From Eubacteriales bacterium (GTDB lineage Bacteria; Bacillota; Clostridia; Christensenellales; Aristaeellaceae), in NCBI GenBank assembly GCA_031553615.1, contig JAVBLJ010000067.1:1-14430 (forward strand): DNA of 14,430 bases, written 5' to 3'. The notes under the pieces are model-generated. The model had not been told where the DNA came from, ran no database searches, and was given only the letters and a program-made list of their open reading frames with translations. This document shows, in pieces, positions 4,152-13,896 of the stretch. Made by a program: the position numbers and the translations under genes. Every line of letters begins with the position of its first letter. Within the stretch, counting starts at the first letter, position 1.

Positions 4152-5204
4152 ATGAGCACGAAGCAGCGCAATCACATGATCCCAAACATTCATCGCCTTG
4201 TAACCAGCGAACTCGGAGAAAACTACTGGTTCAATGGCGGCGCGAAATACGCAATGGAAGCGCTCGGCGAACCCGATTACGACTATTGGTTTTTCGCGGG
4301 ACTGACCGGCGACTTGTTTACGCAGCACTATGCCTATACGAGATCCCTGTGGGATGCCATTGACGGTTATCCGTTAGCGGAAACCCCTCATCGGTTTGTG
4401 AAGGAGCTATTCGGCAAGTGCGGATACGCCGCCGCCTATGTTTCCAAGCGGGAACTCAGGGAGAACACCGAGATGCATCTGAACACGCTGACCGCCTATA
4501 TCGACAAGGGCATCCCCATTATTACCACCATGCACCCGTGCGGCGTATATGTCGGCTATGAGGAATACGGCAAAGTCCTGCTCTACATAACCGGTGATAA
4601 CAGCCAACCGGAACGCATTACGCTGGCGGATGCGATCAGCGGGCAAAGCGCGTTTGAAATGGAGGCCAATACACAGGGCGGATGGATATTTGTCGGCGAG
4701 AAAAAAGAGGCTATCCCGCTTGCCAAGCTGTACCGCGAGACGATTTACTCGATTCCACAATACCATAATGTCAAAACCGACGCGTACTGCTTCGGCCCGG
4801 CGGCTTTCCGCGCATGGGCGGCGGATATAGAGAGCGGCAAGTTTAACGAGATAAAACCAGAGGTATTTGATACCTGGTATCACTACACCAATTATGTATG
4901 CATGCTCGCTACCAACGGGAGCTGTTGCCATGGATTTCTGAAGCGCGCGGAGGAGCTGAATCCAGACATGGGCTTCTTGCGGGAAGTCAGCAGATTGTAT
5001 AAGCGAACCGCTGAGATGTGGGGCGGCGATAACCATCACAACGACGCGGACAGCCTGGAAGCCCTGGGCGGCGGTTTCAACGTCACGCTGGCCACTTTGC
5101 AGGACGTGGGAAAGCGCGGCAAGATTGCGCGGAAAACTCGCGAAATCGCGGTCTGCATGGATCAGGTGCTGGATATCCTGCACGCGAATCCGGCCAAACA
5201 ATAA
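4152..5204 (+). CDS. hypothetical protein (351 aa), function not recognisable from sequence
   Basis: ATG at 4152 is preceded by GGGAGG at 6-nt spacing. The track ORF starting at 4020 has no Shine-Dalgarno and runs through AT-rich promoter DNA. Amino-acid composition is protein-like (W/Y/F-rich, no low complexity), whereas the overlapping minus ORF 4407..5201 is R/A/L-rich antisense junk. GC looks lower than the flanking core genes (judged by eye, not computed). Confidence 0.75.
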   Translation: MSTKQRNHMIPNIHRLVTSELGENYWFNGGAKYAMEALGEPDYDYWFFAGLTGDLFTQHYAYTRSLWDAIDGYPLAETPHRFVKELFGKCGYAAAYVSKRELRENTEMHLNTLTAYIDKGIPIITTMHPCGVYVGYEEYGKVLLYITGDNSQPERITLADAISGQSAFEMEANTQGGWIFVGEKKEAIPLAKLYRETIYSIPQYHNVKTDAYCFGPAAFRAWAADIESGKFNEIKPEVFDTWYHYTNYVCMLATNGSCCHGFLKRAEELNPDMGFLREVSRLYKRTAEMWGGDNHHNDADSLEALGGGFNVTLATLQDVGKRGKIARKTREIAVCMDQVLDILHANPAKQ

Positions 5205-5371: not shown

Positions 5372-6628
5372 GTGAGGTGTGCCGTGGCTTACAGTGAGCT
5401 GATCAAGAGCTTCGAGAGGATTCGCGACTACATGCGCGAGTTTTATGTGTATGGTTTCAAAAGCCGGGAAGAGATGGGCATCAAGTCGGCACGCGGATAT
5501 GACAACGAGCGGAGACGCATCGAGAGCTGGCTAGGAGACTGCATGGGGTTCCGGCACACACCGGAGGGAAAGAATGTGTTTCTTTCGGTAGACAGCCGAG
5601 GAATCACGCGCAATCCGCTGCATGTAGCATTTCGGGCCAAGAGCTTTACAAGGAACGACATCACGCTGCACTTTCTGCTGCTGGATATGCTTCACGGGAA
5701 TGTCGCACTAACGGCGCAGCAGGCGGCGGATCGGCTGGCTGCGGACTATCTGTGCCGCGCCCAGGACTGCGAGCTACCGGACGAATCCACGGTGCGGAAG
5801 AAACTGCTTGAATATGAGGAGCTTGGGCTGCTGGCAACGCGGACTGAAAATAGGAAACGGCTCTATGCCCGAAGCACAGACGACGTGAAGCTAAACCGGT
5901 GGGCGGACGCCATTGCCTTCTTCGCGGAAGCGGACAGCCTGGGCGTGATCGGCAGCTTCTTGCTGCCGCGACTAGAAAGCATGCCGCATGGTTTCCGCTT
6001 CAAGCATCATTACCTGTTGCGCGTGCTGGAAAGCGAGCTGCTGTTCACCGCGCTGATGGCCATCCGGGAGCGGCGCTACGTGATGCTGTATATGGGCGCA
6101 GGGCAGTTTGAACACAACATCACTTGGCGTGTCACGCCGGTGAAGGTGCTTAGCAGCACGCAGACCGGGCGTTACTATCTGTGCGCCTACAGCCAGCGGC
6201 GCGGCCGGTTGTGCTGCTATAGGATGGATCACATTCGGCACATTGAACCGCTGGATGCCGATCCTGAGTTCGAAGAGCGAAGTGCCCGGTTCGAGCAGGT
6301 CAAGCGCCACCTTTGGGGCGCGGGCATCGGCGGCAACCGCAGCGTGAGTCACCTCGAGATGACCGTGCAGGTGAGCGAGGGTGAAGACTACATTGTACAG
6401 CGGCTGATGCGCGAACGGCGCTGCGGCATCGTGGAGCAGGTGGATGAGACACACTGGCGCTACGTGGTAGACGTGTACGATCCCTATGAGGTCGGGCCGT
6501 GGATACGCACGTTTATCGGTCGCATTACGGCCTTTCAGTGCGACGACGCGGCGGTGGCGGAGCGGTTCCGCTCCGATGTGTGGGCGATGCTTCAGCAGTA
6601 TGGGGGTGACGCGGATGCTGTTCAGTGA
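5372..6628 (+). CDS. WYL-domain transcriptional regulator (wHTH-WYL-WCX architecture with an extra N-terminal domain); first of a PafB/PafC-like pair
   Basis: 418 aa. It has a WYL-type motif GRYYLCAYSQRRGRLCCYRMDHIRHIEPLD, a putative wHTH LTAQQAADRLAADYL...ESTVRKKLLEYEELGLLATR, and a C-terminal extension (WCX-like). The start is ambiguous: GTG 5372 is the longest, GTG 5384 follows GAGGTG, and ATG 5432 is also possible. The minus ORF 5972..6454 is an antisense shadow. Confidence 0.8.
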   Translation: MRCAVAYSELIKSFERIRDYMREFYVYGFKSREEMGIKSARGYDNERRRIESWLGDCMGFRHTPEGKNVFLSVDSRGITRNPLHVAFRAKSFTRNDITLHFLLLDMLHGNVALTAQQAADRLAADYLCRAQDCELPDESTVRKKLLEYEELGLLATRTENRKRLYARSTDDVKLNRWADAIAFFAEADSLGVIGSFLLPRLESMPHGFRFKHHYLLRVLESELLFTALMAIRERRYVMLYMGAGQFEHNITWRVTPVKVLSSTQTGRYYLCAYSQRRGRLCCYRMDHIRHIEPLDADPEFEERSARFEQVKRHLWGAGIGGNRSVSHLEMTVQVSEGEDYIVQRLMRERRCGIVEQVDETHWRYVVDVYDPYEVGPWIRTFIGRITAFQCDDAAVAERFRSDVWAMLQQYGGDADAVQ

Positions 6629-7520
6629 AGTCCACAGCGCTTATTTTCAGGCGGTGGCGCGCATTCTGACGGAGGCCATCGATGCGCCAGTCAGCCCTGG
6701 GCGCATGGACGAGATCGTGCGTGAGACGGCATTTGCGGAAAGCGTGCTGCATGTTGCCCCCGCACTTCGCTCGGGTGAATGGCCGCTCCTGACGCCAGAG
6801 GGGCGAGCGTTGGTTCGGAATATGCCGACGATGCCGCTGACGATGCTCGAAAAGCGCTGGTTGAAAGCGTTGCTGCTGGATCCGCGCGTCGCGCTGTTCG
6901 ATCCGCCATCTGACGGACTAGAGGATATAGAGCCGCTGTTCGATCCGGGCGATGTGTACTGGTTTGACCGTTATCTGGACGGCGATCCGTATGACAACCC
7001 CCAATATATCGCCAACTTCCGTATGGTGCTTCTGGCCCTCCGCGAGCGCCGCAAGCTGCGCATCGTATACACGGGCGCGAAGGGGCGCACGATCCGGGGC
7101 GTGTTTATGCCGGGCAATCTGGAATACTCGCAGAAGGATGACAAGTTCCGGCTGCACACGCTGGGCGGGAAAAGAATCTCGATCCGGCTGTCGACGGTGC
7201 TGGTGTGCGAGCCGGAGGAGCCGTTTAGTCCCGTTGCGTTCCAGCGCACGGAGCCAGGCGAGCAGCACATGCTGGAGATTGAAATCCGTGACGATCGGAA
7301 CGCCATGGAACGCGCGATGCTGCACTTCTCACATCTGAAGAAGGAGGCCGAGCGCGTGGGCGATGATCGCTACCGGATGAAACTCTGGTATGAGCAGGAA
7401 GACGAGACCGAGATGGTGATTCGTGTGCTATCCTTCGGGCCGATGGCGCGGGTGCTTGCTCCTGAGCAGCTTAAGCGGCAGGTCGTCGAACGGCTGGAAA
7501 ATCAAGTAAAGCTGATGTGA
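6615..7520 (+). CDS. WYL-domain protein, second member of the pair (PafC-like), overlapping the upstream gene by 14 nt
   Basis: ATG 6615 is preceded by GGGGGTGA. GTG 6606 is an alternative start. The track ORF from 6486 begins with R/S-rich junk in an alternate frame of the upstream gene. Sequence: MLFSEVHSAYFQAVARILTE..., a WYL-like core TGAKGRTIRGVFMPGNLEYSQKDDKFRLHTLG, and a C-terminal WCX-like domain ...YRMKLWYEQEDETEMVIRVLSFGPMARVLAPEQLKRQVVERL. Confidence 0.8.
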   Translation: MLFSEVHSAYFQAVARILTEAIDAPVSPGRMDEIVRETAFAESVLHVAPALRSGEWPLLTPEGRALVRNMPTMPLTMLEKRWLKALLLDPRVALFDPPSDGLEDIEPLFDPGDVYWFDRYLDGDPYDNPQYIANFRMVLLALRERRKLRIVYTGAKGRTIRGVFMPGNLEYSQKDDKFRLHTLGGKRISIRLSTVLVCEPEEPFSPVAFQRTEPGEQHMLEIEIRDDRNAMERAMLHFSHLKKEAERVGDDRYRMKLWYEQEDETEMVIRVLSFGPMARVLAPEQLKRQVVERLENQVKLM

Positions 7521-7528
7521 TCCATGAG

Positions 7529-7555
7529 CGTTTCCCTTCGGGGAGGCGTTTTTTT
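7529..7555 (+). terminator. Rho-independent terminator of the WYL operon
   Basis: Stem CGTTTCCC / GGGAGGCG (8 bp including 2 G-U pairs) with a UUCG tetraloop (7537-7540), followed by a run of 7 T. It starts 9 nt after the stop codon. Confidence 0.85.
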
Positions 7556-7576
7556 CATCCTCGCAACTTTTTTACC

Positions 7577-7605
7577 ATGACCTTCCATGGCACATTTGAT
7601 ATGAT
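7577..7605 (+). promoter_or_regulatory. candidate sigma-A promoter for the leader-SPFH-rtcB transcript (ATGACC -N17- TG-a-TATGAT)
   Basis: Extended -10 TGaTATGAT at 7597-7605. A -35-like ATGACC lies 17 nt upstream and is flanked by a CCATG...CATGG inverted repeat (7574-7590). It sits just downstream of the terminator. Confidence 0.4.
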
Positions 7606-8037
7606 GCCTTTGTCGCAGAAACCAAGCGTGGCGCTCAGGGACTTCCTCCCGGCGACCTGCGGTGCCCGGCGCGTTGCGCAGAGGGTATTTCGGTGAAGCG
7701 GCGTCGGTATGCATTGCGTGGGTTCGAGTCCCACCCTATCGTATGGATAGGCCAAGCGGTTATGGAATCGCTCGAAAGAGCACGCACCTGTTAAGTGTGA
7801 AGTCAAGGCAAGAAGGGAACCGGCAGAGGGCGCTCCGGCATGGCGAAAAGGGCAGCATACCGCCCACCGCCGTGCAGCGAGGCAAATGCCTTGCCGGGCG
7901 CGATCTTCTTCGGACACCGGCTTGCGGCCAGGGCACGAGCCTCCGCCGCCAGTCAGAGACCGAAGCGCGCGCCCGCCGCGAATGCCGCGTGGAACGCCCC
8001 GCCGCCCCGGTCAATTATCATGAGGAGGGAAAACCAT
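7606..8037 (+). promoter_or_regulatory. long, unusually GC-rich structured 5' leader of the SPFH gene (contains the tRNA-like element listed separately)
   Basis: About 430 nt with no protein-like ORF. The two track ORFs (7662..8081 + and 7555..7917 -) are R/A/P-rich junk. GC is far above that of normal intergenic DNA in this window. There is no T-run, so it reads through to the GAGGAGGG Shine-Dalgarno of the 8038 gene. Confidence 0.45.
7716..7800 (+). ncRNA. tRNA-like RNA element, apparently circularly permuted (T-arm, acceptor-like hairpin, D-arm-like, anticodon-arm-like); candidate cognate RNA of the SPFH/RtcB repair module
   Basis: 7718-7734: GTGGG TTCGAGT CCCAC is a perfect T-arm with the same T-loop as the real tRNA-Trp in this window. 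7735-7751: CCTATC gtatg GATAGG is a 6-bp hairpin. 7755-7772: AGCG gttatggaat CGCT is a 4-bp stem with a GG-containing loop. 7783-7799: a 5-bp stem enclosing the 7-nt loop CTGTTAA (U at position 2, A after the triplet). There is no canonical acceptor 5' strand and no CCA. The boundaries are approximate. Confidence 0.5.
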
Positions 8038-9138
8038 ATGAATATCATTGTAAACGAAAACCAGCGCGCGCTGCTGTTTAAGAACGGACGCTTTGTAAAG
8101 CTGCTGATGCCCGGCAAGCACCGCGCATTGTTTGGCAACTATAGCGTGCAAAAGGTCGAGGTTAAGGACGAGTTCCGCCCGGAGATCGGGCAGCTCAAGA
8201 ACTATGCGAACATGCCTGAGCTAGCAAGCCAACTGGCTACCGTTGAGGTAGGCGATGCGCAGGTGGCATTGCGCTTCGAGGACGGGCGTCTGATGCCCAG
8301 CGCGCTAAAAAGCGGGCTGCACGCGTTCTGGAAGGCGGGTTCTGAGCACACCTTTCAGCTGCTGGACGTAACGGAGCCGGAGATCAATGACGTCCCGCCC
8401 GTGCACCTCATGAGCATCCCTTACATGGTACAGCGCGTGGAGGTGTTGCCCGGGCAAAAGGCATTGCTGATGCGCGACGGCGAGTTTGTGAAGCTGCTTT
8501 GTGAAGGCACGCACTTTTACTGGAGGCAAGAAGTATCCGGCATCAAGATAAGCGCGCAGGTGGTGGACACGAAGCTTATGCAGATGAGCGTGCAAGGCCA
8601 GGAAGTGCTCTCGCTGGATAAGGTGGCGGTGCGCGCGAACTTCATCTGCCGCTACCGGATCACCGACTGTGTTCGCGCCATCACCGAAATCGCGGATTAT
8701 GAGGAGCAGTTGCATGTCGCGGCGCAACTTATCTTACGGGAGTACATCGGCCAGCACAGGCTGGATGAACTGCTGGAGAATCGCGAGCAGCTAGGCCAGT
8801 TTGTATTGCAGGGCATAAAGAAGCGTGAGTCCGAATTCTTCATCGAGGTGGTGGACGCGGGCGTTCGCGACATCATTCTGCCCGGCGAGATCCGCGAGAT
8901 CATGAACACCGTGCTGGTTGCCGAAAAAAAGGCGCAGGCCAACGTGATCACTCGTCGCGAAGAGGTTGCCTCTACCCGCAGCTTGCTGAACACTGCAAAG
9001 CTGATGGATGAGAACGCAACGCTGATGAAGCTCAAAGAAATGGAATACCTGGAAAAAATCTGCGAAAACGTGGGCTCCATCACCGTCCATGGCGGCAGCG
9101 ATCTACTGGGTCAGCTGGCTACAATGCTGAAAGCGTAA
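8038..9138 (+). CDS. SPFH/Band-7 (slipin/stomatin-like) domain protein, apparently soluble (no N-terminal TM segment)
   Basis: ATG 8038 follows GAGGAGGG with a 7-nt spacer. The track start at 7840 adds R/A-rich junk. The C-terminal two thirds match SPFH cores (...VRDIILPGEIREIMNTVLVAEKKAQANVITRREEVASTRSLLNTAKLMDENATLMKLKEMEYLEKI; compare QmcA ...IKDIDPPKEIQEAMEKQMKAERDKRA...). The N-terminus carries the SPFH strand motif twice (NQRALLFKNGRFVKLLMPG and GQKALLMRDGEFVKLLCEG). No hydrophobic stretch is long enough for a membrane anchor. Confidence 0.88.
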   Translation: MNIIVNENQRALLFKNGRFVKLLMPGKHRALFGNYSVQKVEVKDEFRPEIGQLKNYANMPELASQLATVEVGDAQVALRFEDGRLMPSALKSGLHAFWKAGSEHTFQLLDVTEPEINDVPPVHLMSIPYMVQRVEVLPGQKALLMRDGEFVKLLCEGTHFYWRQEVSGIKISAQVVDTKLMQMSVQGQEVLSLDKVAVRANFICRYRITDCVRAITEIADYEEQLHVAAQLILREYIGQHRLDELLENREQLGQFVLQGIKKRESEFFIEVVDAGVRDIILPGEIREIMNTVLVAEKKAQANVITRREEVASTRSLLNTAKLMDENATLMKLKEMEYLEKICENVGSITVHGGSDLLGQLATMLKA

Positions 9139-9329
9139 TGATGCCGACTGGAAGCGAAGCCATTATGAAACAATGAATCACAAAATCCTTCACGGATCGA
9201 GCGGAAAGAGGGCGTCAAAACCCTGCGCACTGCGGAGTCTGGAAGCAGGGCGCGGGTTTCGCCTCCCCGGACAGCGAGTACGTCGTCCGATTCGTCTAGG
9301 CCCGCTCCGCGCTGGATTACATGAAGCTG

Positions 9330-9340
9330 ATGGTGTAAAT
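9330..9340 (+). promoter_or_regulatory. candidate internal extended -10 promoter element upstream of rtcB (aTGgTGTAAAT), no recognisable -35
   Basis: Same 10-mer as at 5341-5350. It lies about 50 nt upstream of the rtcB ATG. There is no terminator between the SPFH gene and rtcB, so read-through is also expected. Confidence 0.3.
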
Positions 9341-9391
9341 GGGATGAGCTAAACGCGCTTTTTGCCACATCACGACGGGGGGATACACAAC

Positions 9392-10594
9392 ATGATCGAG
9401 ATCAAGGGAACGCACAACATCGCGTATGCTTTTACAAACGAAGTCGAGCCCAATGCCGCCGCGCAGATCCGAGACGTGTGCGATCAGCCGCATTTTGAAG
9501 GCTGCAAAATCCGGATCATGCCGGATGTTCACGCGGGCAAGGGCTGTACCATCGGCACCACAATGACGCTCACGGATAAGGTGGTGCCCAACATGGTGGG
9601 CGTTGACATCGGCTGCGGCATGGAGACGGTGCGCCTGCGCGAGCAGGAGATCGACTTCGTCAAACTGGACGGGGCGATCCGCGCGCATGTACCCTGTGGC
9701 CGCGAAGTGCGCGAACGGGAGCATCCGTACAACACGCAGATCGACCTGAGCAAGCTGCGCTGCGGCGGAGAATTGCAGCTCGGTCGCGCGCGCACGAGCA
9801 TCGGCACGCTAGGCGGCGGCAATCACTTCATCGAGGTGGATCGGGACGACGAGGGCAATCTGTACCTGGTGGTACACTCAGGCAGCCGCCACCTGGGCAC
9901 CGAGATCGCCGACTGGTATCAGCAGGAAGGGTTCCGCACGCTGTGCGGCAATGCCAAGGTGCAGATTGACGAACTGATCGCCGAGCTGAAACGCACCGGT
10001 CGGCGCAAGGAAATTCAGCAGCGCGTGCGGGAGACCAAGGCATTTAACACGCCGCCGGTGCCCGAAAGCCTGGCCTATGTAGAGGGCCGGCTGTTTGATG
10101 ATTATATCCACGACATGCGCATCACCCAGGCATTCGCGGCGCTCAACCGCAAGGCTATGGTGGATGTGATCCTCACCGAAATGGGTCTGCATAGCGAAGA
10201 TGCCTTCACTACCATTCACAACTATATCGACACCGAATCGATGATTCTTCGGAAGGGCGCGGTGTCGGCGCGCGCGGGCGAGAGGCTGTTGATCCCAATC
10301 AACATGCGCGATGGTTCCTTGCTGTGCACCGGCCTGGGGAACAACGACTGGAACCAGTCCGCGCCTCACGGAGCCGGGCGGCTAATGAGCCGCATGGAGG
10401 CCAACCGCAGGCTATCGCTTGAGCAGTTTAAGGACGAGATGCGGGGCATTTATTCCACTTCCGTCGGGAAAGACACCCTGGACGAATCGCCCATGGCCTA
10501 CAAAGGCATGGACGCAATCATATGCAACATCGGCCCGACGGCGCGCATTGAGAAGATCATCCGACCCGTGTACAATTTTAAGGCGTCGGTATAA
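9392..10594 (+). CDS. rtcB: RNA ligase RtcB (3'-phosphate/2',3'-cyclic-phosphate to 5'-OH RNA ligase)
   Basis: 400 aa from ATG 9392 (MIEIKGTHNIAYAF...). The track start at 9362 is a TTG 10 codons upstream. The protein carries the full set of RtcB metal/GTP-site signatures: RIMPDVHAGKG, VGVDIGCGM, GGGNHFIEV, VVHSGSRHLG, HNYID, ILRKGA, PINMRDG and APHGAGR. Confidence 0.95.
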   Translation: MIEIKGTHNIAYAFTNEVEPNAAAQIRDVCDQPHFEGCKIRIMPDVHAGKGCTIGTTMTLTDKVVPNMVGVDIGCGMETVRLREQEIDFVKLDGAIRAHVPCGREVREREHPYNTQIDLSKLRCGGELQLGRARTSIGTLGGGNHFIEVDRDDEGNLYLVVHSGSRHLGTEIADWYQQEGFRTLCGNAKVQIDELIAELKRTGRRKEIQQRVRETKAFNTPPVPESLAYVEGRLFDDYIHDMRITQAFAALNRKAMVDVILTEMGLHSEDAFTTIHNYIDTESMILRKGAVSARAGERLLIPINMRDGSLLCTGLGNNDWNQSAPHGAGRLMSRMEANRRLSLEQFKDEMRGIYSTSVGKDTLDESPMAYKGMDAIICNIGPTARIEKIIRPVYNFKASV

Positions 10595-10640
10595 AGGATC
10601 GATATAAGGGTTCGATATAAAGGATTGATAAAAAAAGGAA
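10594..10640. repeat. three imperfect tandem direct repeats (AAGGATCGATATAA / GGGTTCGATATAAA / GGATTGATAAAAAAA) filling the rtcB-downstream intergenic spacer
   Basis: Seen directly. The pattern is RGGDTYGATAWAAA x3 between the rtcB stop (10592-10594) and the AAGGAAGG Shine-Dalgarno of the next gene. Confidence 0.5.
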
Positions 10641-10650
10641 GGTGTTGGAC

Positions 10651-11628
10651 ATGAAATTCTTTACGCCCGAATGGGATTACGCTTCCCGGCGAACATCATT
10701 GAGCCTCGGACTGCACCCGGATAAGCGCGCCAAGACCTTCGATGAATCGTTTTACAACAGGGTATACCAGCAGGCGTATCAGCGCGAATATCGAATGATG
10801 AAGAGCGTTCACGAAGTCTCCCATGCGGAGTTGATCATGAGGATGTACAAGCCTTTATATGACGCGGACGAAATGAGCCGGGAGGACTATGAAACCGCGG
10901 TGGAAGATGCGCGCCGTCTGGACGCGGAAAAGCCTCCGTTTTGCGAGGAGGCCGTAATCAGCCGATGCCAAACGCAGCTAAGAAATTCGCAGAGGAGCTA
11001 TCAGCAGCTTCTGCCTTCGGAGATTCTCTCTCGGGTGGCGGACATCCGCGTACTCGCGGCGGGCGTGGCATCGCCGGAAGTGTACAAGACGATCAAAGCA
11101 TTCACGGCGGAAAATGACCGCCTGTCCGATCAAGTGCACGAGGCGCACTCAAAACAGCTTCAATTGATTTGGGACAATATCCCGAAGGAGATTCAGGAAA
11201 ATCTGTTTTCACTGCATGATGCAACACTGGAACGTATGGAACTGGGCGATCGCACACTGACCCTGTTCCTGATGCAGGATGGTGAAAATCACTACCGGGT
11301 TCACAGCATCACCTTTGAAGATTGTGATATCCTGCACATCGACGAACCGGTGGCCGGCGGATGGTGGAAATACGTCGAGTTCGACATCCTCGAGGACGGG
11401 CGATATGAGATAGGCATTCTGTTCACCGGCGCGGTGCAGAATGAAGACGACGATTGGTTTCACCAAACCATCGAAGTGCGCTCACCCAGGATTTCCTTTG
11501 TTCGTTATGAACTTACAGAGGATGAGATCAAAGCGCAACAAGCGATGTCAGAACGGGTAGAACGGCTCGAGCAAAAAGGGCTGGTGACGCGCCTTGCTCC
11601 CCTCGTTCGCGATGAAACGAAGGAATAG
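10651..11628 (+). CDS. hypothetical acidic protein (325 aa), probably co-transcribed with rtcB; possibly DUF4085-like (low certainty)
   Basis: ATG 10651 follows AAGGAAGGTG. The track ORF begins at a GTG 3 codons earlier. Sequence: MKFFTPEWDYASRR... No enzymatic motif was recognised, and the composition is protein-like. The N-terminal MK(F/Y)FT.EW pattern is, as I recall it, typical of the DUF4085 family. That is memory, not a search result. Confidence 0.8.
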   Translation: MKFFTPEWDYASRRTSLSLGLHPDKRAKTFDESFYNRVYQQAYQREYRMMKSVHEVSHAELIMRMYKPLYDADEMSREDYETAVEDARRLDAEKPPFCEEAVISRCQTQLRNSQRSYQQLLPSEILSRVADIRVLAAGVASPEVYKTIKAFTAENDRLSDQVHEAHSKQLQLIWDNIPKEIQENLFSLHDATLERMELGDRTLTLFLMQDGENHYRVHSITFEDCDILHIDEPVAGGWWKYVEFDILEDGRYEIGILFTGAVQNEDDDWFHQTIEVRSPRISFVRYELTEDEIKAQQAMSERVERLEQKGLVTRLAPLVRDETKE

Positions 11629-11705: not shown

Positions 11706-11748
11706 TTGACATCCTCAATACCATATGTTATAAATAACATATGGTATT
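11706..11748 (+). promoter_or_regulatory. sigma-A promoter (TTGACA -N17- TATAAAT) with an overlapping PadR-type operator, a perfect 15-bp inverted repeat containing ATGT-N8-ACAT
   Basis: TTGACA is at 11706-11711 and TATAAAT at 11729-11735 with exact 17-nt spacing. The palindrome AATACCATATGTTAT aa ATAACATATGGTATT spans 11717-11748 and covers the -10 and the expected transcription start. Confidence 0.7.
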
Positions 11749-11764
11749 GTTGGAGGTGATTGGA

Positions 11765-12700
11765 TTGACGATCGAATGCGCGATTTTAGGGCTGTTATGT
11801 CGCGAACCCTTGGCTGGATATGATCTGAAAAAGCGCATGCAAAATGCCCCGGAAATGCCTTGGTCGGGTAACAACAACCAAATCTATAAAGTCCTGAGCG
11901 CGTTGCTTGATGAAGGATTGTTGGAGAGCGAGCTGCAGCCTCAGGATGGCCTGCCCGCCAGAAAGGTGTACACAATCACCGCATTGGGCCGCACCACACT
12001 GAAGGAATGGCTAACCGCAGCACCTGAAATGATGGAACTCAAGAGCCCATTCCTCGCGCAGTTATCCGTTGCGAGCATCATTGGCGCACAGCAAGTGGAT
12101 GTGCTGCTGCATCAGTACGAGCGTCAACTTATGGCGCAGTTGCATACCCTTCCCGCCCTGTGCGATTCGGACGATTTCGATTCGGTATTGCGCTTGCTGG
12201 TTCAGGACAGCATAAAAACCAGCTATGAATCACAGCTTGGATGGGTACAACGCGCACGCGATACGCTTAGACCATTTGCGCAACAGGAACACACCGAAGC
12301 GCAAAATGTGCAGGAACACGAGGAAAATCCAGCGATGCCTTTTGACGTACTTGAGAAAAACGGTGAGAAGTACCTACATTACCGCGCTACGGCTTCCTGT
12401 CCGGAAACACTGATTCCCACACAGTTTGTCGCGGATTGTGTCGAGCAGTGTGTAAACCGCGTGATGCTGGAAGAATGTGCGCTGCCCGAGTCATTTTTCC
12501 GGCTGCGCACCGTGCTGGCGGGCGAGGTTTTACAAAAGCTTGAGCAGTACCGCGTGAGGGTCGCGCTTGTGTTAAGCCAATCGGGTGCCAAGGGAAAATT
12601 CAAGGATTTGCTGATTGAAGCAAATCGCGGAGGTCGGTTTCGCTCGTTTGCCAGCACGGAACAAGCGGAGAAATGGCTGACTGGGGAGGATGTCCAATGA
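11765..12700 (+). CDS. PadR-family transcriptional regulator with a long C-terminal extension
   Basis: The N-terminal domain ...ECAILGLLCREPLAGYDLKKRMQNAPEMPWSGNNNQIYKVLSALLDEGLLESELQPQDGLPARKVYTITALGRTTLKEWL is a canonical PadR wHTH. I chose the TTG at 11765 because GGAGGTGA lies 5 nt upstream. The in-frame ATG at 11741 (the track start) has no Shine-Dalgarno and lies inside the operator palindrome. It would fit only as a leaderless start. Confidence 0.85.
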   Translation: MTIECAILGLLCREPLAGYDLKKRMQNAPEMPWSGNNNQIYKVLSALLDEGLLESELQPQDGLPARKVYTITALGRTTLKEWLTAAPEMMELKSPFLAQLSVASIIGAQQVDVLLHQYERQLMAQLHTLPALCDSDDFDSVLRLLVQDSIKTSYESQLGWVQRARDTLRPFAQQEHTEAQNVQEHEENPAMPFDVLEKNGEKYLHYRATASCPETLIPTQFVADCVEQCVNRVMLEECALPESFFRLRTVLAGEVLQKLEQYRVRVALVLSQSGAKGKFKDLLIEANRGGRFRSFASTEQAEKWLTGEDVQ

Positions 12701-13822: not shown

Positions 13823-13896
13823 TGGCAGGGGCAGAAGGACTCGAACCCTCAACAAAGGTTTTGGAGACCCACGTGTTACCATTACACCATGCCCCT
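13823..13896 (-). tRNA. trnW: tRNA-Trp (anticodon CCA), CCA 3' end encoded
   Basis: Reverse complement: AGGGGCA TG GTGT AATGGTA ACAC G TGGGT CTCCAAA ACCTT TGTTG GAGGG TTCGAGT CCTTC TGCCCCT G CCA. The 7-bp acceptor is identical to Bacillus tRNA-Trp. The D-arm and the T-arm (GG-TTCGAGT-CC) are canonical. The anticodon loop is CU-CCA-AA. Confidence 0.93.

Follow-up and report, generated by a model that had tools for sequence, protein, structure and literature searches.

A Band-7/SPFH and RtcB gene cassette with a structured tRNA-like leader RNA as a candidate bacterial RNA-repair system

Analysing a 14,430-nt stretch of DNA (hereafter the window), we identified a cassette that couples a Band-7/SPFH protein, the RNA ligase RtcB and a tRNA-like RNA, and whose reading as an RNA-repair cassette is supported by conserved synteny and by RNA covariation. 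This cassette belongs to the system predicted in 2016 by Burroughs and Aravind and is not a new system. Widespread in Clostridia, with variants in Bacteroidota and Comamonadaceae, it is ordered as two WYL genes, a terminator, a promoter with a 20-nt element, a leader of ~425 nt, the SPFH gene and a ligase module, the latter consisting in the window of a decayed RlaP gene, rtcB and a lineage-specific DUF4085 gene. The leader, SPFH, rtcB and DUF4085 all lie on the same (+) strand. Our analysis directly established the conserved gene order, the covarying three-domain leader, an SPFH protein devoid of membrane anchor and the intact active site of RtcB.

An earlier note on this DNA had proposed a candidate RNA-repair operon here, and all the features that it listed were recovered, at most a few bases away from where it had placed them. 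The core of its proposal, an SPFH-RtcB-tRNA-like RNA association, holds on the grounds of synteny and covariation, but the DUF4085 protein as a conserved component and a plain 253-nt spacer between SPFH and rtcB do not, and the tandem repeats that it noted are found in the window alone.

Results

Gene order across related loci

Synteny was counted in 42 distinct related loci with enough flanking sequence. In 29 of them RtcB is the neighbour of this SPFH family, bearing out the SPFH-rtcB linkage on which the earlier proposal was built, and WYL genes are so in 30/42. Both are found beside SPFH in 27/42 loci, the WYLa+WYLb pair adjoins the SPFH gene in 26/42, and RlaP in 13/42, neighbouring genes having been checked with Pfam. 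The leader and SPFH are also encountered without an adjoining ligase or WYL gene (10/42 loci), indicating that the tie to repair is not obligatory. In one relative (L099/L100), the unit formed by the two WYL genes, the leader and SPFH leads into a gene for Hen1, from the Pnkp/Hen1 repair system (Hen1_L 2.6e-98), which takes the place of RtcB, and a WapI-like tRNase-immunity protein is also encoded downstream. The SPFH scaffold and its RNA are therefore associated with exchangeable RNA-repair ligase systems. Upstream of the unit, L099 has a serine recombinase.

A three-domain leader RNA

The region from ~7612 to 8037 (~425 nt) is non-coding and, as its strong covariation indicates, encodes a structured RNA of ~330 nt composed of three domains, all of them supported. 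The tRNA-like leader described by the earlier note is thus present, with its T-arm (7718-7734) and elbow, but it is not merely a tRNA-like stub, and the three-domain extent of the RNA had been overlooked.

Domain 1 (7659..7690, +) is a conserved bulged helix, GGUGC/GUAU(G/U)(C/U)C, with a small hairpin inside it. In the alignment of 46 loci that defines it (A2), 94.6% of the cells are paired, against at most 50% in slid controls, and 89 double-change cells are observed, compared with 28.6 in shuffles (0/500). Domain 2 (7715..7788, +) corresponds to a permuted tRNA-like elbow, whose model (R1) reaches 51.7 bits for the window sequence and matches 33 loci at E<1e-12. It comprises a T-arm (GTGGG-TTCGAGT-CCCAC; 7718-7734, +), a closed 6-bp acceptor-like hairpin (7735-7751, +), a mini D-arm (CCAAGCGGUUAUGG; 7752-7765, +) and a GAAA hairpin (7770-7781, +). 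The T-arm helix is 100% paired with compensatory changes, is directly followed by the hairpin in nearly all loci, and lies ~300-340 nt upstream of the SPFH start in 74/97 loci. Domain 3 (7884..7983, +), obtained by RNAalifold on 17 full leaders, spans ~100 nt and is closed by a long-range helix joining 7884-7913 with 7960-7983. Its positions are 88.9% paired (slid controls at most 45%), compensatory changes affect 15 of 18 pairs, and every measure was reached in 0/500 cases. When mapped onto the window, 16 of the 18 pairs form, and the domain ends at a fixed distance of ~55 nt before the ribosome binding site (RBS). Two otherwise conserved motifs are altered in the window leader, GUAUUUC replacing GUAUGCC and CGAUCUUC replacing GGAUACCG, the latter block being located about 137-145 nt from the SPFH ATG.

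No catalogued family accounts for this RNA. ARAGORN detected no tRNA in the window leader, the Rfam tRNA model found no match in the window, and no Rfam 15 family reached its gathering score. A partial match to Rfam YrlA covers exactly the T-arm and hairpin (18 bits for a gathering score of 69; model positions 31-62), and the leader of L045 gave no YrlA match whatsoever. The Rfam tRNA model scores 29-35 bits in the Bacteroidota variants only, which carry separate tRNA-like genes as well as true tRNA arrays at the position equivalent to the leader. Neither the window nor the consensus fold contains a terminator/antiterminator or an RBS-sequestering helix, and three loci (L038, L042 and L065) have an insert of ~600 nt between the RNA and SPFH.

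A soluble SPFH protein

The leader is followed by a gene for a soluble SPFH/Band-7 protein of 366 aa (8038..9138, +; Pfam Band_7 4e-31), starting at ATG 8038 after AGGAGGG. A longer ORF of 432 aa from 7840 was rejected as the SPFH gene, homologues being 365 aa long and covering 100% of the 366-aa product. In this protein, three beta repeats at the N-terminus precede the SPFH core, and a long helix makes up the C-terminal part; the repetition of the N-terminal strand motif had been noticed before, but as two copies instead of three. The lack of a membrane anchor, also pointed out by the earlier note, was upheld both by hydropathy, which revealed no transmembrane segment (highest 19-residue Kyte-Doolittle mean of 1.10), and by a confident AF2 model (pLDDT 85.6) without N-terminal helix. 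The best fold matches were stomatin, HflK/C, prohibitin, erlin, flotillin and the major vault protein, all of which build rings or cages. To our knowledge, all full-length SPFH proteins with a solved structure assemble into closed rings or cages.

The ligase module

RtcB, the 3'-phosphate/5'-OH RNA ligase (400 aa; 9392..10594, +), was identified as previously proposed (Pfam 2.4e-59), and alignment with P. horikoshii RtcB (1UC2) at D95/C98, N202/H203, H234 and H404 shows its active site to be intact. The D/C, NH, H and PHGAGR motifs, including metal ligands and the His-GMP position, align to 1UC2, and the HN motif was recognised by inspection only. RtcB falls below the NCBIfam equivalog cut-offs, pointing to a divergent 400-aa subfamily. 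The cyclase RtcA and the CARF/sigma-54 activator RtcR are absent from the window.

The interval separating SPFH from rtcB does measure 253 nt, but it is not a plain spacer: comparison by blastn with the intact RlaP of L001 (L001:1107-1877; Pfam RlaP 2.6e-85) revealed the remnant of a pseudogene for this RNA-repair nucleotidyltransferase (9139..9391, +). Its first ~57 codons are 79% identical to the L001 gene with frameshifts and stops, and an internal deletion of ~540 bp precedes the last ~10 codons, which are retained (81%). With RlaP dead and two conserved RNA motifs changed, the window copy of the cassette looks partly eroded.

Downstream of rtcB lies a gene for an acidic DUF4085 protein of 325 aa (10651..11628, +; Pfam 7.8e-21). 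The 56-nt gap before it and the repeats filling it are as formerly reported, but the 13-nt tandem repeat (3.8 copies, TRF; 10586..10634, +), which spans the rtcB stop codon, is peculiar to the window, and the spacer is reduced to 17 nt in L001 and L098. The earlier note saw in this protein a dedicated adaptor or inhibitor of SPFH-RtcB, acting like archease or immunity proteins. Its position on the same strand as rtcB, with its own RBS and as little as 17 nt behind in those two relatives, and its composition (61 D+E against 41 K+R, net charge about -20) would suit such a role, which we nevertheless consider unlikely. Apart from the window, a DUF4085 gene comes after rtcB in just two relatives, 69-74% identical, and it is missing from all the other cassettes examined. 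In addition, a word search among 5.8 billion proteins returned only 4 homologues, of which the most distant (38%) adjoins a cardiolipin synthase and an AraC regulator, and the poor structure model yielded neither a fold match nor a family clue. DUF4085 is a lineage-specific addition and not a conserved component of the cassette. A PadR promoter and operator occur beyond it at 11707-11749, as anticipated for the region after 11700.

Tandem WYL genes, promoter and candidate operator

Two adjacent paralogues with WYL and WCX domains, overlooked by the earlier note together with the operator-like element at the promoter, are encoded upstream of the leader. WYLa, the first of the pair, is a WYL-domain regulator of 418 aa (5372..6628, +; Pfam WYL 3.5e-5, PADLOC WYL 2.3e-10), and WYLb is a WYL/WCX paralogue of 301 aa (6615..7520, +; Pfam WCX 7e-6, PADLOC WYL 7e-10) whose first 14 nt coincide with the last of WYLa, an overlap of the same length being present in L013. 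Pfam searches, even at E<=1, found no HTH in either protein, and no sequence similarity to solved WYL regulators was detectable. The WYL operon is closed by an intrinsic terminator (7526..7558, +), already located at 7529-7555, with an 11-bp stem (7526-7551) followed by a T-run.

Immediately downstream, a 20-nt element (TCGCAACTTTTTTACCATGA; 7561..7580, +) overlaps the -35 and represents a candidate operator. Found in 34/77 loci, with columns invariant in the 25 aligned loci, it occurs once in the window for 0 expected by chance. The promoter assigned to the leader was retrieved by consensus scan (7577..7605, +; -35 ATGACC, 17-nt spacer, TGn-extended -10 TGaTATGAT) at a conserved position, the distance from the 20-nt element to its TAnnnT -10 being always 19 nt in the 25 aligned loci.

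Discussion

Proposed mechanism and competing interpretations

We infer from these sequences how the cassette may work, including predicted RNA-SPFH, RNA-RtcB and WYL-operator contacts. The WYL pair would sense RNA damage that leaves 2',3'-cyclic-phosphate and 5'-OH ends, caused for instance by tRNase or rRNase toxins, and would turn the promoter on via the invariant 20-nt element. The leader would then be transcribed with the mRNA and perhaps excised, and would bind the SPFH oligomer by way of the invariant bulged helix, the 3' domain or both. Its tRNA-like elbow could recruit tRNA-recognising factors or broken tRNAs, which the co-encoded ligase would reseal inside a protected compartment. Taken as a whole, this explanation, from the WYL-WYL-terminator-promoter/element-leader-SPFH-ligase organisation to the proposed repair mechanism, is in our view probable. 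A more specific version, which we regard as possible but tentative, is that the uncatalogued ~330-nt three-domain RNA and a soluble SPFH cage form a bacterial vault-like ribonucleoprotein, in which the elbow would dock broken tRNAs or tRNA enzymes, RtcB+RlaP or Pnkp/Hen1 would plug in, and a PafBC-like WYL heterodimer would sense damaged RNA at the operator.

The leader might instead be a cis-acting 5' UTR (a riboswitch, an autoregulatory protein-binding leader or a T-box-like sensor) that sets SPFH-rtcB expression and is not a trans-acting partner; it could for example bind excess SPFH, RtcB or damaged tRNA. Its constant location immediately 5' to SPFH and in the same orientation, without an intervening terminator, would allow a purely cis-regulatory function, and both the fixed distance of its 3' domain from the RBS and the ten loci reduced to leader and SPFH fit with it. 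We find this interpretation doubtful, however, considering that no conserved terminator/antiterminator or RBS-sequestering helix was observed, that the tRNA-like module is laid out as in YrlA, a trans-acting RNP RNA, that the Bacteroidota variants have separate tRNA-like genes along with true tRNA arrays instead, and that the ~600-nt insert of three loci parts the RNA from SPFH. More radically, the T-arm and hairpins could be decayed tRNA genes or the scar of an integration at a tRNA locus, the SPFH-RtcB adjacency then being functionally meaningless; true tRNA arrays close to several cassettes, the serine recombinase of L099 and the failure of ARAGORN to call a tRNA in the window leader would agree with such an origin. 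It is very improbable given that every helix is preserved by compensatory changes among loci with only ~50% protein identity, that the distance between the module and the SPFH start is constant (~300-340 nt), that two non-tRNA domains are equally conserved, and that adjacency to RNA-repair genes recurs across phyla.

Implications for bacterial RNA repair

We found no experimental test of the Band-7 branch of RtcB systems in the literature searched. The prediction can now be put to the test element by element, since the gene starts are placed exactly, the promoter is conserved and accompanied by a candidate operator, the large RNA has a model backed by covariation in which one domain mimics a tRNA, and the soluble SPFH protein is modelled with confidence. 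That one and the same scaffold-RNA pair occurs with RtcB or with Pnkp/Hen1 adds a further testable point. If it exists, the RNA-SPFH particle would give bacteria their first example of a soluble SPFH cage with bound RNA, comparable in function to Ro/Y-RNA particles as well as to vaults. Likewise, a WYL pair governing RNA repair would add a new field of action to WYL regulators, known so far from DNA damage and phage defence.

Comparison with known systems

Compared with the cages of stomatin, HflK/C, prohibitin and flotillin, the window SPFH protein, known here from its gene and AF2 model, lacks a membrane anchor. It resembles the SPFH/stomatin (slipin) scaffolds in having an SPFH fold followed by a coiled-coil helix, but its N-terminus consists of three beta repeats in place of an anchor or hairpin, and it is far smaller than the major vault protein (MVP), with 3 repeats versus 9. 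The regulators recall the PafBC-type tandem HTH-WYL-WCX proteins, also encoded by adjacent overlapping WYL paralogues upstream of a stress-repair operon, and whose target promoter likewise combines a TAnnnT -10 and a poor -35 with a conserved motif lying upstream. They differ in having no HTH detected by Pfam (E<=1) and in their predicted target, RNA repair and not DNA repair.

Association of Band-7 with RtcB and a 'b7a-tRNA' was predicted by Burroughs and Aravind (NAR 2016), and Wang et al. (bioRxiv 10.1101/312249) present it as unvalidated as of 2018, in agreement with the account given by the earlier note. As far as Wang et al. describe that system, the window shares with it a Band-7 gene beside RtcB and a tRNA-like non-coding element, RlaP (the 'novel nucleotidyltransferase') as an accessory in relatives, and exchangeable ligase modules. 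The b7a-tRNA is described there as strongly resembling an authentic tRNA, whereas the window element is permuted without an anticodon arm in register, fails both ARAGORN and the Rfam tRNA model, and sits within a larger three-domain RNA. In P. aeruginosa, too, the rtc locus contains an SPFH gene, PaFlo8 (PMC13086221).

Unlike the classical Rtc operon (RtcR-RtcA-RtcB), the window has neither RtcR nor RtcA. The same holds relative to the rsr-yrlBA-rtcBA operon of the bacterial Y RNA YrlA and Ro60 (Rsr) (Rfam RF02553; PMC4201824; Hughes et al. 2020, PMC7790460), the WYL pair standing here in place of the CARF-sigma54 activator. No TROVE domain, and hence no Ro60/TROVE gene, was found in any scanned window ORF, SPFH being the predicted partner instead; by inspection, the GNCGAAG Ro-binding motif is absent from the leader, and the Rfam score of the window element remains well under the YrlA gathering score. 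The leader is nevertheless encoded beside RtcB, as YrlA is, and its elbow follows the order of the YrlA tRNA-like domain: T-arm, closed acceptor-like stem-loop and D-arm (Chen et al. 2014, PMC4201824). YrlA is regarded as a link between a ring-shaped protein and effectors, and the window leader may play a similar role.

Gene content of the cassette and its SPFH protein

Downstream of a strong terminator that closes the genes 5' of it (7526-7551 plus a T-run), the forward strand carries a sigma-70-like promoter with an extended -10 (ATGACC-17-TATGAT, 7577-7605), an SPFH gene whose ATG at 8038 is preceded by AGGAGGG (366-aa product; Pfam Band_7, 4e-31), rtcB (9392-10594; 400 aa; Pfam RtcB, 2e-59) and a DUF4085 gene (10651-11628; 325 aa; Pfam DUF4085, 8e-21). 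All the features listed in an earlier note, made from the sequence alone, were found in the window (terminator, promoter and, by Pfam, the three genes), with SPFH-rtcB and rtcB-DUF4085 spacers of exactly the 253 and 56 nt it had given; its interpretation of them as a candidate RNA-repair operon is right in its core and wrong or incomplete in details. The stretch covered by that note is immediately preceded, on the same strand, by two overlapping genes, WYLa (5372-6628) and WYLb (6615-7520).

The SPFH product matched hundreds of 365-aa homologues from end to end. A 432-aa reading frame from 7840 was ruled out by these full-coverage homologues and by the ribosome-binding site before 8038. Because the SPFH gene starts at 8038, the ~425 nt between promoter and start codon are non-coding. 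The AlphaFold model of the protein (pLDDT 85.6) comprises three small beta domains (1-63, 66-125 and 131-177), an SPFH core and a helix (283-345), and the beta repeats are detectable in the sequence itself (E = 7e-8 and 2e-4); the N-terminal strand motif previously described as duplicated is indeed repeated, but the model holds three such domains rather than two. Hydrophobicity nowhere reaches the level needed to span a membrane, in agreement with the anchorless protein proposed earlier. Its best fold matches (stomatin, HflK/C, prohibitin, erlin, flotillin and major vault protein) all assemble into closed rings or cages, and a soluble assembly of this kind would naturally be expected here too. 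The active-site motifs recognised earlier in RtcB also held, its catalytic residues aligning with those of the P. horikoshii enzyme.

A recurrent genomic neighbourhood

Using the SPFH protein as a probe, we gathered 12 genomic and at least 80 metagenomic loci, to which look-ups of individual homologous proteins added eight; neighbouring genes were scored with a tblastn panel and Pfam checks. Divergent RtcBs of Bacteroidota loci, missed by tblastn with the window RtcB alone, were recovered by clustering and extra queries. In Clostridia, a recurrent cassette was found, consisting of WYLa (~410 aa), WYLb (~300 aa, overlapping WYLa), a gap of ~500 nt, SPFH (365 aa), RtcB (~400 aa) and often the nucleotidyltransferase RlaP; the window shares this architecture. 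Among the matches listed, neighbours were counted in those 42 distinct loci whose flanks reached at least 3.2 kb on the upstream and 1.5 kb on the downstream side. RtcB was adjacent in 29 of them, WYL genes in 30 (as a tandem pair in 26), both together in 27 and RlaP in 13, with 10 loci lacking both RtcB and WYL. The association of SPFH with rtcB put forward earlier is therefore upheld among these matches, but that of the 325-aa DUF4085 family is not, being limited to three loci.

In the Bacteroidota and Comamonadaceae variants there is a single WYL-WCX gene, transcribed divergently, and RtcB may stand before or after SPFH, sometimes accompanied by PrfH; these loci also hold real tRNA arrays, and two tandem tRNA-like elements 5' of SPFH. 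In a relative with a 60% identical SPFH protein (L099 5260-6443 and L100 3833-4920), the order WYL-WYL-leader-SPFH is followed by a WapI-like protein (tRNase-toxin immunity) and, in place of RtcB, the Hen1 of the Pnkp/Hen1 RNA-repair system. Of the evidence from genomic context, such swapping of analogous ligase systems around a constant scaffold and RNA speaks most strongly for a role of SPFH and the RNA in RNA repair.

Several other neighbours were observed. The L099/L100 relative encodes a serine recombinase and a KilA-N protein 5' of its cassette. No SPFH relative was found in the viral contigs searched. Genuine tRNA arrays (4-7 genes) flank cassettes immediately up- or downstream in five loci (L003 3440-5245, L005 4056-5291, L012 3185-5196, L016 11194-11502 and L033 8947-9525), and are continuous with the tRNA-like elements in Bacteroidota loci. 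Short (136-aa) peptide deformylase genes adjoin the cassette in two unrelated loci (L013 10145-10555, from Aminipila terrae, and L016 1713-2123), a possible sign of a connection with translation rescue. In a Flavobacteriales locus (L011 1266-5396), an RtcB-PrfH (release-factor H) pair, a small protein (family 3 of the clustering) and a second RtcB all stand upstream of the tRNA-like elements and SPFH, while in Acetonema longum (L014 5834-11183) a Wadjet/JetABC-type defence system (DUF3375, MksE/JetB, SMC-like) directly follows the cassette.

A three-domain leader RNA under structural selection

The leader consists of three domains, and their covariation shows an RNA under structural selection. 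Domain 1 (7659-7690) consists of the helix GGUGC/GUAUGCC, which hardly varies and bulges out two bases, and a small variable hairpin inside it; across 46 loci 94.6% of cells were paired, against at most 50% in slid controls, with 89 double-change cells versus 28.6 in shuffles (0/500). Domain 2 (7715-7788) is a tRNA-like elbow, comprising on the forward strand a T-arm (7718-7734; 100% paired across loci, with GC/AU/UA exchanges), directly 3' of it a closed 6-7-bp hairpin at the place of the acceptor stem (7735-7751), a mini D-arm, CC-AGUGGUUU-GG, carrying the GG of the D-loop (7752-7765), and then a GNRA-capped hairpin. The acceptor hairpin was 64% paired by column, owing to imperfect register, and clear in individual sequences. 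As MAFFT alignments of this region with long flanks were too gappy, the analysis relied instead on trimmed alignments and on a covariance model derived from 25 loci; the model recovered 33 distinct loci at E<1e-12, with one match in the window (51.7 bits). Domain 3 (7884-7983) spans ~100 nt within a long-range closing helix, its loops holding the conserved blocks GGAUACCG, GGCCAGRAG and UYCCGCC, whose distance to the SPFH start is constant. Among 17 full-length leaders, 88.9% of its cells were paired (slid controls at most 45%) with compensatory changes in 15 of 18 pairs, every measure giving 0/500; the window sequence forms 16 of these pairs.

The nearest relative leader in the comparison stood at 60% protein identity. 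Single-sequence folding was weak or uninformative, z being -0.67 over 7645-7800 and -2.41 over the full leader. No Rfam gathering score was reached over the leader in the window and 28 related loci; low-threshold scans returned a sub-threshold partial YrlA match (18 bits) on exactly the T-arm and hairpin, the rest being chance matches. A switch in which the downstream GGAUACCG block would pair alternatively with the GGUGC helix showed no consistent covariation by eye. In three loci (L038, L042 and L065), an insertion of ~600 nt with an open reading frame separates the tRNA-like module from SPFH, indicating that leader RNA and SPFH need not be contiguous.

A conserved promoter element

Alignment of the WYLb-leader intervals revealed an invariant element, TCGCA(A/G)CTTTTTT(T/A)CC(A/G)TGA, 19 nt 5' of a TAnnnT -10 that is likewise conserved, after which a (T)GCAAGG-like start region follows; transcription is predicted to start ~7 nt beyond the -10. 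Among the matches listed, it was found in 34 of the 77 loci with enough upstream sequence; in the window it occurs once, on the forward strand (TCGCARCTTTTTTTCCRTGA, 7561-7580), with 0 expected by chance. In most loci the element is also the 3' arm of the WYL-operon terminator, but not in the window, and its retention there points to some other cause of its conservation; we infer a candidate site of promoter control by the WYL proteins. PafBC-dependent promoters combine TAnnnT, a weak -35 and a conserved upstream motif, a layout that the cassette promoter recalls. The WYL proteins gave no PDB sequence match and no HTH by Pfam, and pairwise BLASTP between WYLa and WYLb was not significant.

The decayed RlaP gene and further genes of the window

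Comparison with the intact gene of L001, a close relative (SPFH 88% identical; order SPFH-RlaP-RtcB-DUF4085), identifies the 253-nt SPFH-rtcB spacer, by its sequence, as a dead RlaP gene: the first ~57 codons are kept at 79% identity with frameshifts and stops, ~540 bp are missing and the last ~10 codons remain. In this same locus, where RlaP has decayed, the leader departs from two consensus motifs, at 7684-7690 (GUAUUUC for GUAUGCC) and 7901-7908 (CGAUCUUC for GGAUACCG), and the cassette may be partly degenerating.

DUF4085, earlier proposed as a further component of the system, is not a conserved one: among the cassettes examined, it stands 3' of RtcB in L001, L098 and the window alone, and a 38% homologue adjoins cardiolipin synthase. 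It had no NCBIfam or PADLOC match and no papers in the literature searched, and its poor AF2 model (pLDDT 67.7) gave no fold match at E < 0.01. The tandem repeats reported in the 56-nt spacer exist (13-nt units, 10586-10634, spanning the rtcB stop codon) but are absent from L001 and L098, where this spacer is 17 nt.

The PadR promoter placed after 11700 was located at TTGACA 11707-11712, the PadR/DUF4180 gene having its own promoter (region 11707-11767). Overlapping it, a perfect 16-nt inverted repeat (11716-11731/11734-11749) containing ATGT-N8-ACAT looks like a PadR-type autoregulatory operator, and translation probably begins not at ATG 11741 but at TTG 11765, which GGAGG precedes. Just 5' of the WYL genes, a 350-aa protein (4152-5204) had no Pfam, NCBIfam or PADLOC match and was not seen beside the cassette in other loci. 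On the reverse strand, 2 kb downstream of the cassette, lies a tRNA-Trp(CCA) gene (13823-13896) with a near-consensus promoter (TTGACA-17-TACAAT, 13938-13910).

Proposed mechanism and alternatives

The order of the parts is conserved, the SPFH protein is soluble, the ligase is intact and the promoter element is conserved. We propose that the WYL pair would sense damaged nucleic acid and activate the promoter, and that the leader, possibly after processing, would use its invariant helix, its 3' domain or both to bind the SPFH oligomer, while its tRNA-like elbow would bring in broken tRNAs, or factors that handle tRNA, for ligation. The chief alternative, a purely cis-regulatory leader, appears rather unlikely, given that a conserved expression platform is lacking and that the RNA class matched by the tRNA-like module acts in trans. 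Covariation across loci makes it very unlikely that the module is a pseudo-tRNA or an integration scar.

Relation to known systems

Wang et al. (bioRxiv 10.1101/312249) credit Burroughs and Aravind (2016) with the prediction that RtcB occurs beside a Band-7 protein and a 'band-7-associated tRNA', which matches the account in the earlier note; they also state that YrlA occasionally adjoins the Band-7 protein, and present all of this as lacking validation. No later test was found in the literature searched, which, with this source, places the window among members of a predicted, uncharacterised kind. An SPFH gene is also contained in the P. aeruginosa rtc locus (2026 survey, PMC13086221). Domain 2 of the leader follows the order of YrlA (T-arm, closed acceptor stem-loop, D-arm; Chen et al., PMC4201824), but the cassette is not a member of Rfam YrlA, since its score is below threshold and Ro is absent, nor is it a classical Rtc operon, since it lacks RtcR and RtcA. 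As far as Wang et al. describe that prediction, the cassette is a further member of the system of Burroughs and Aravind (2016), which is real, widespread and now sharply defined, and not categorically new.
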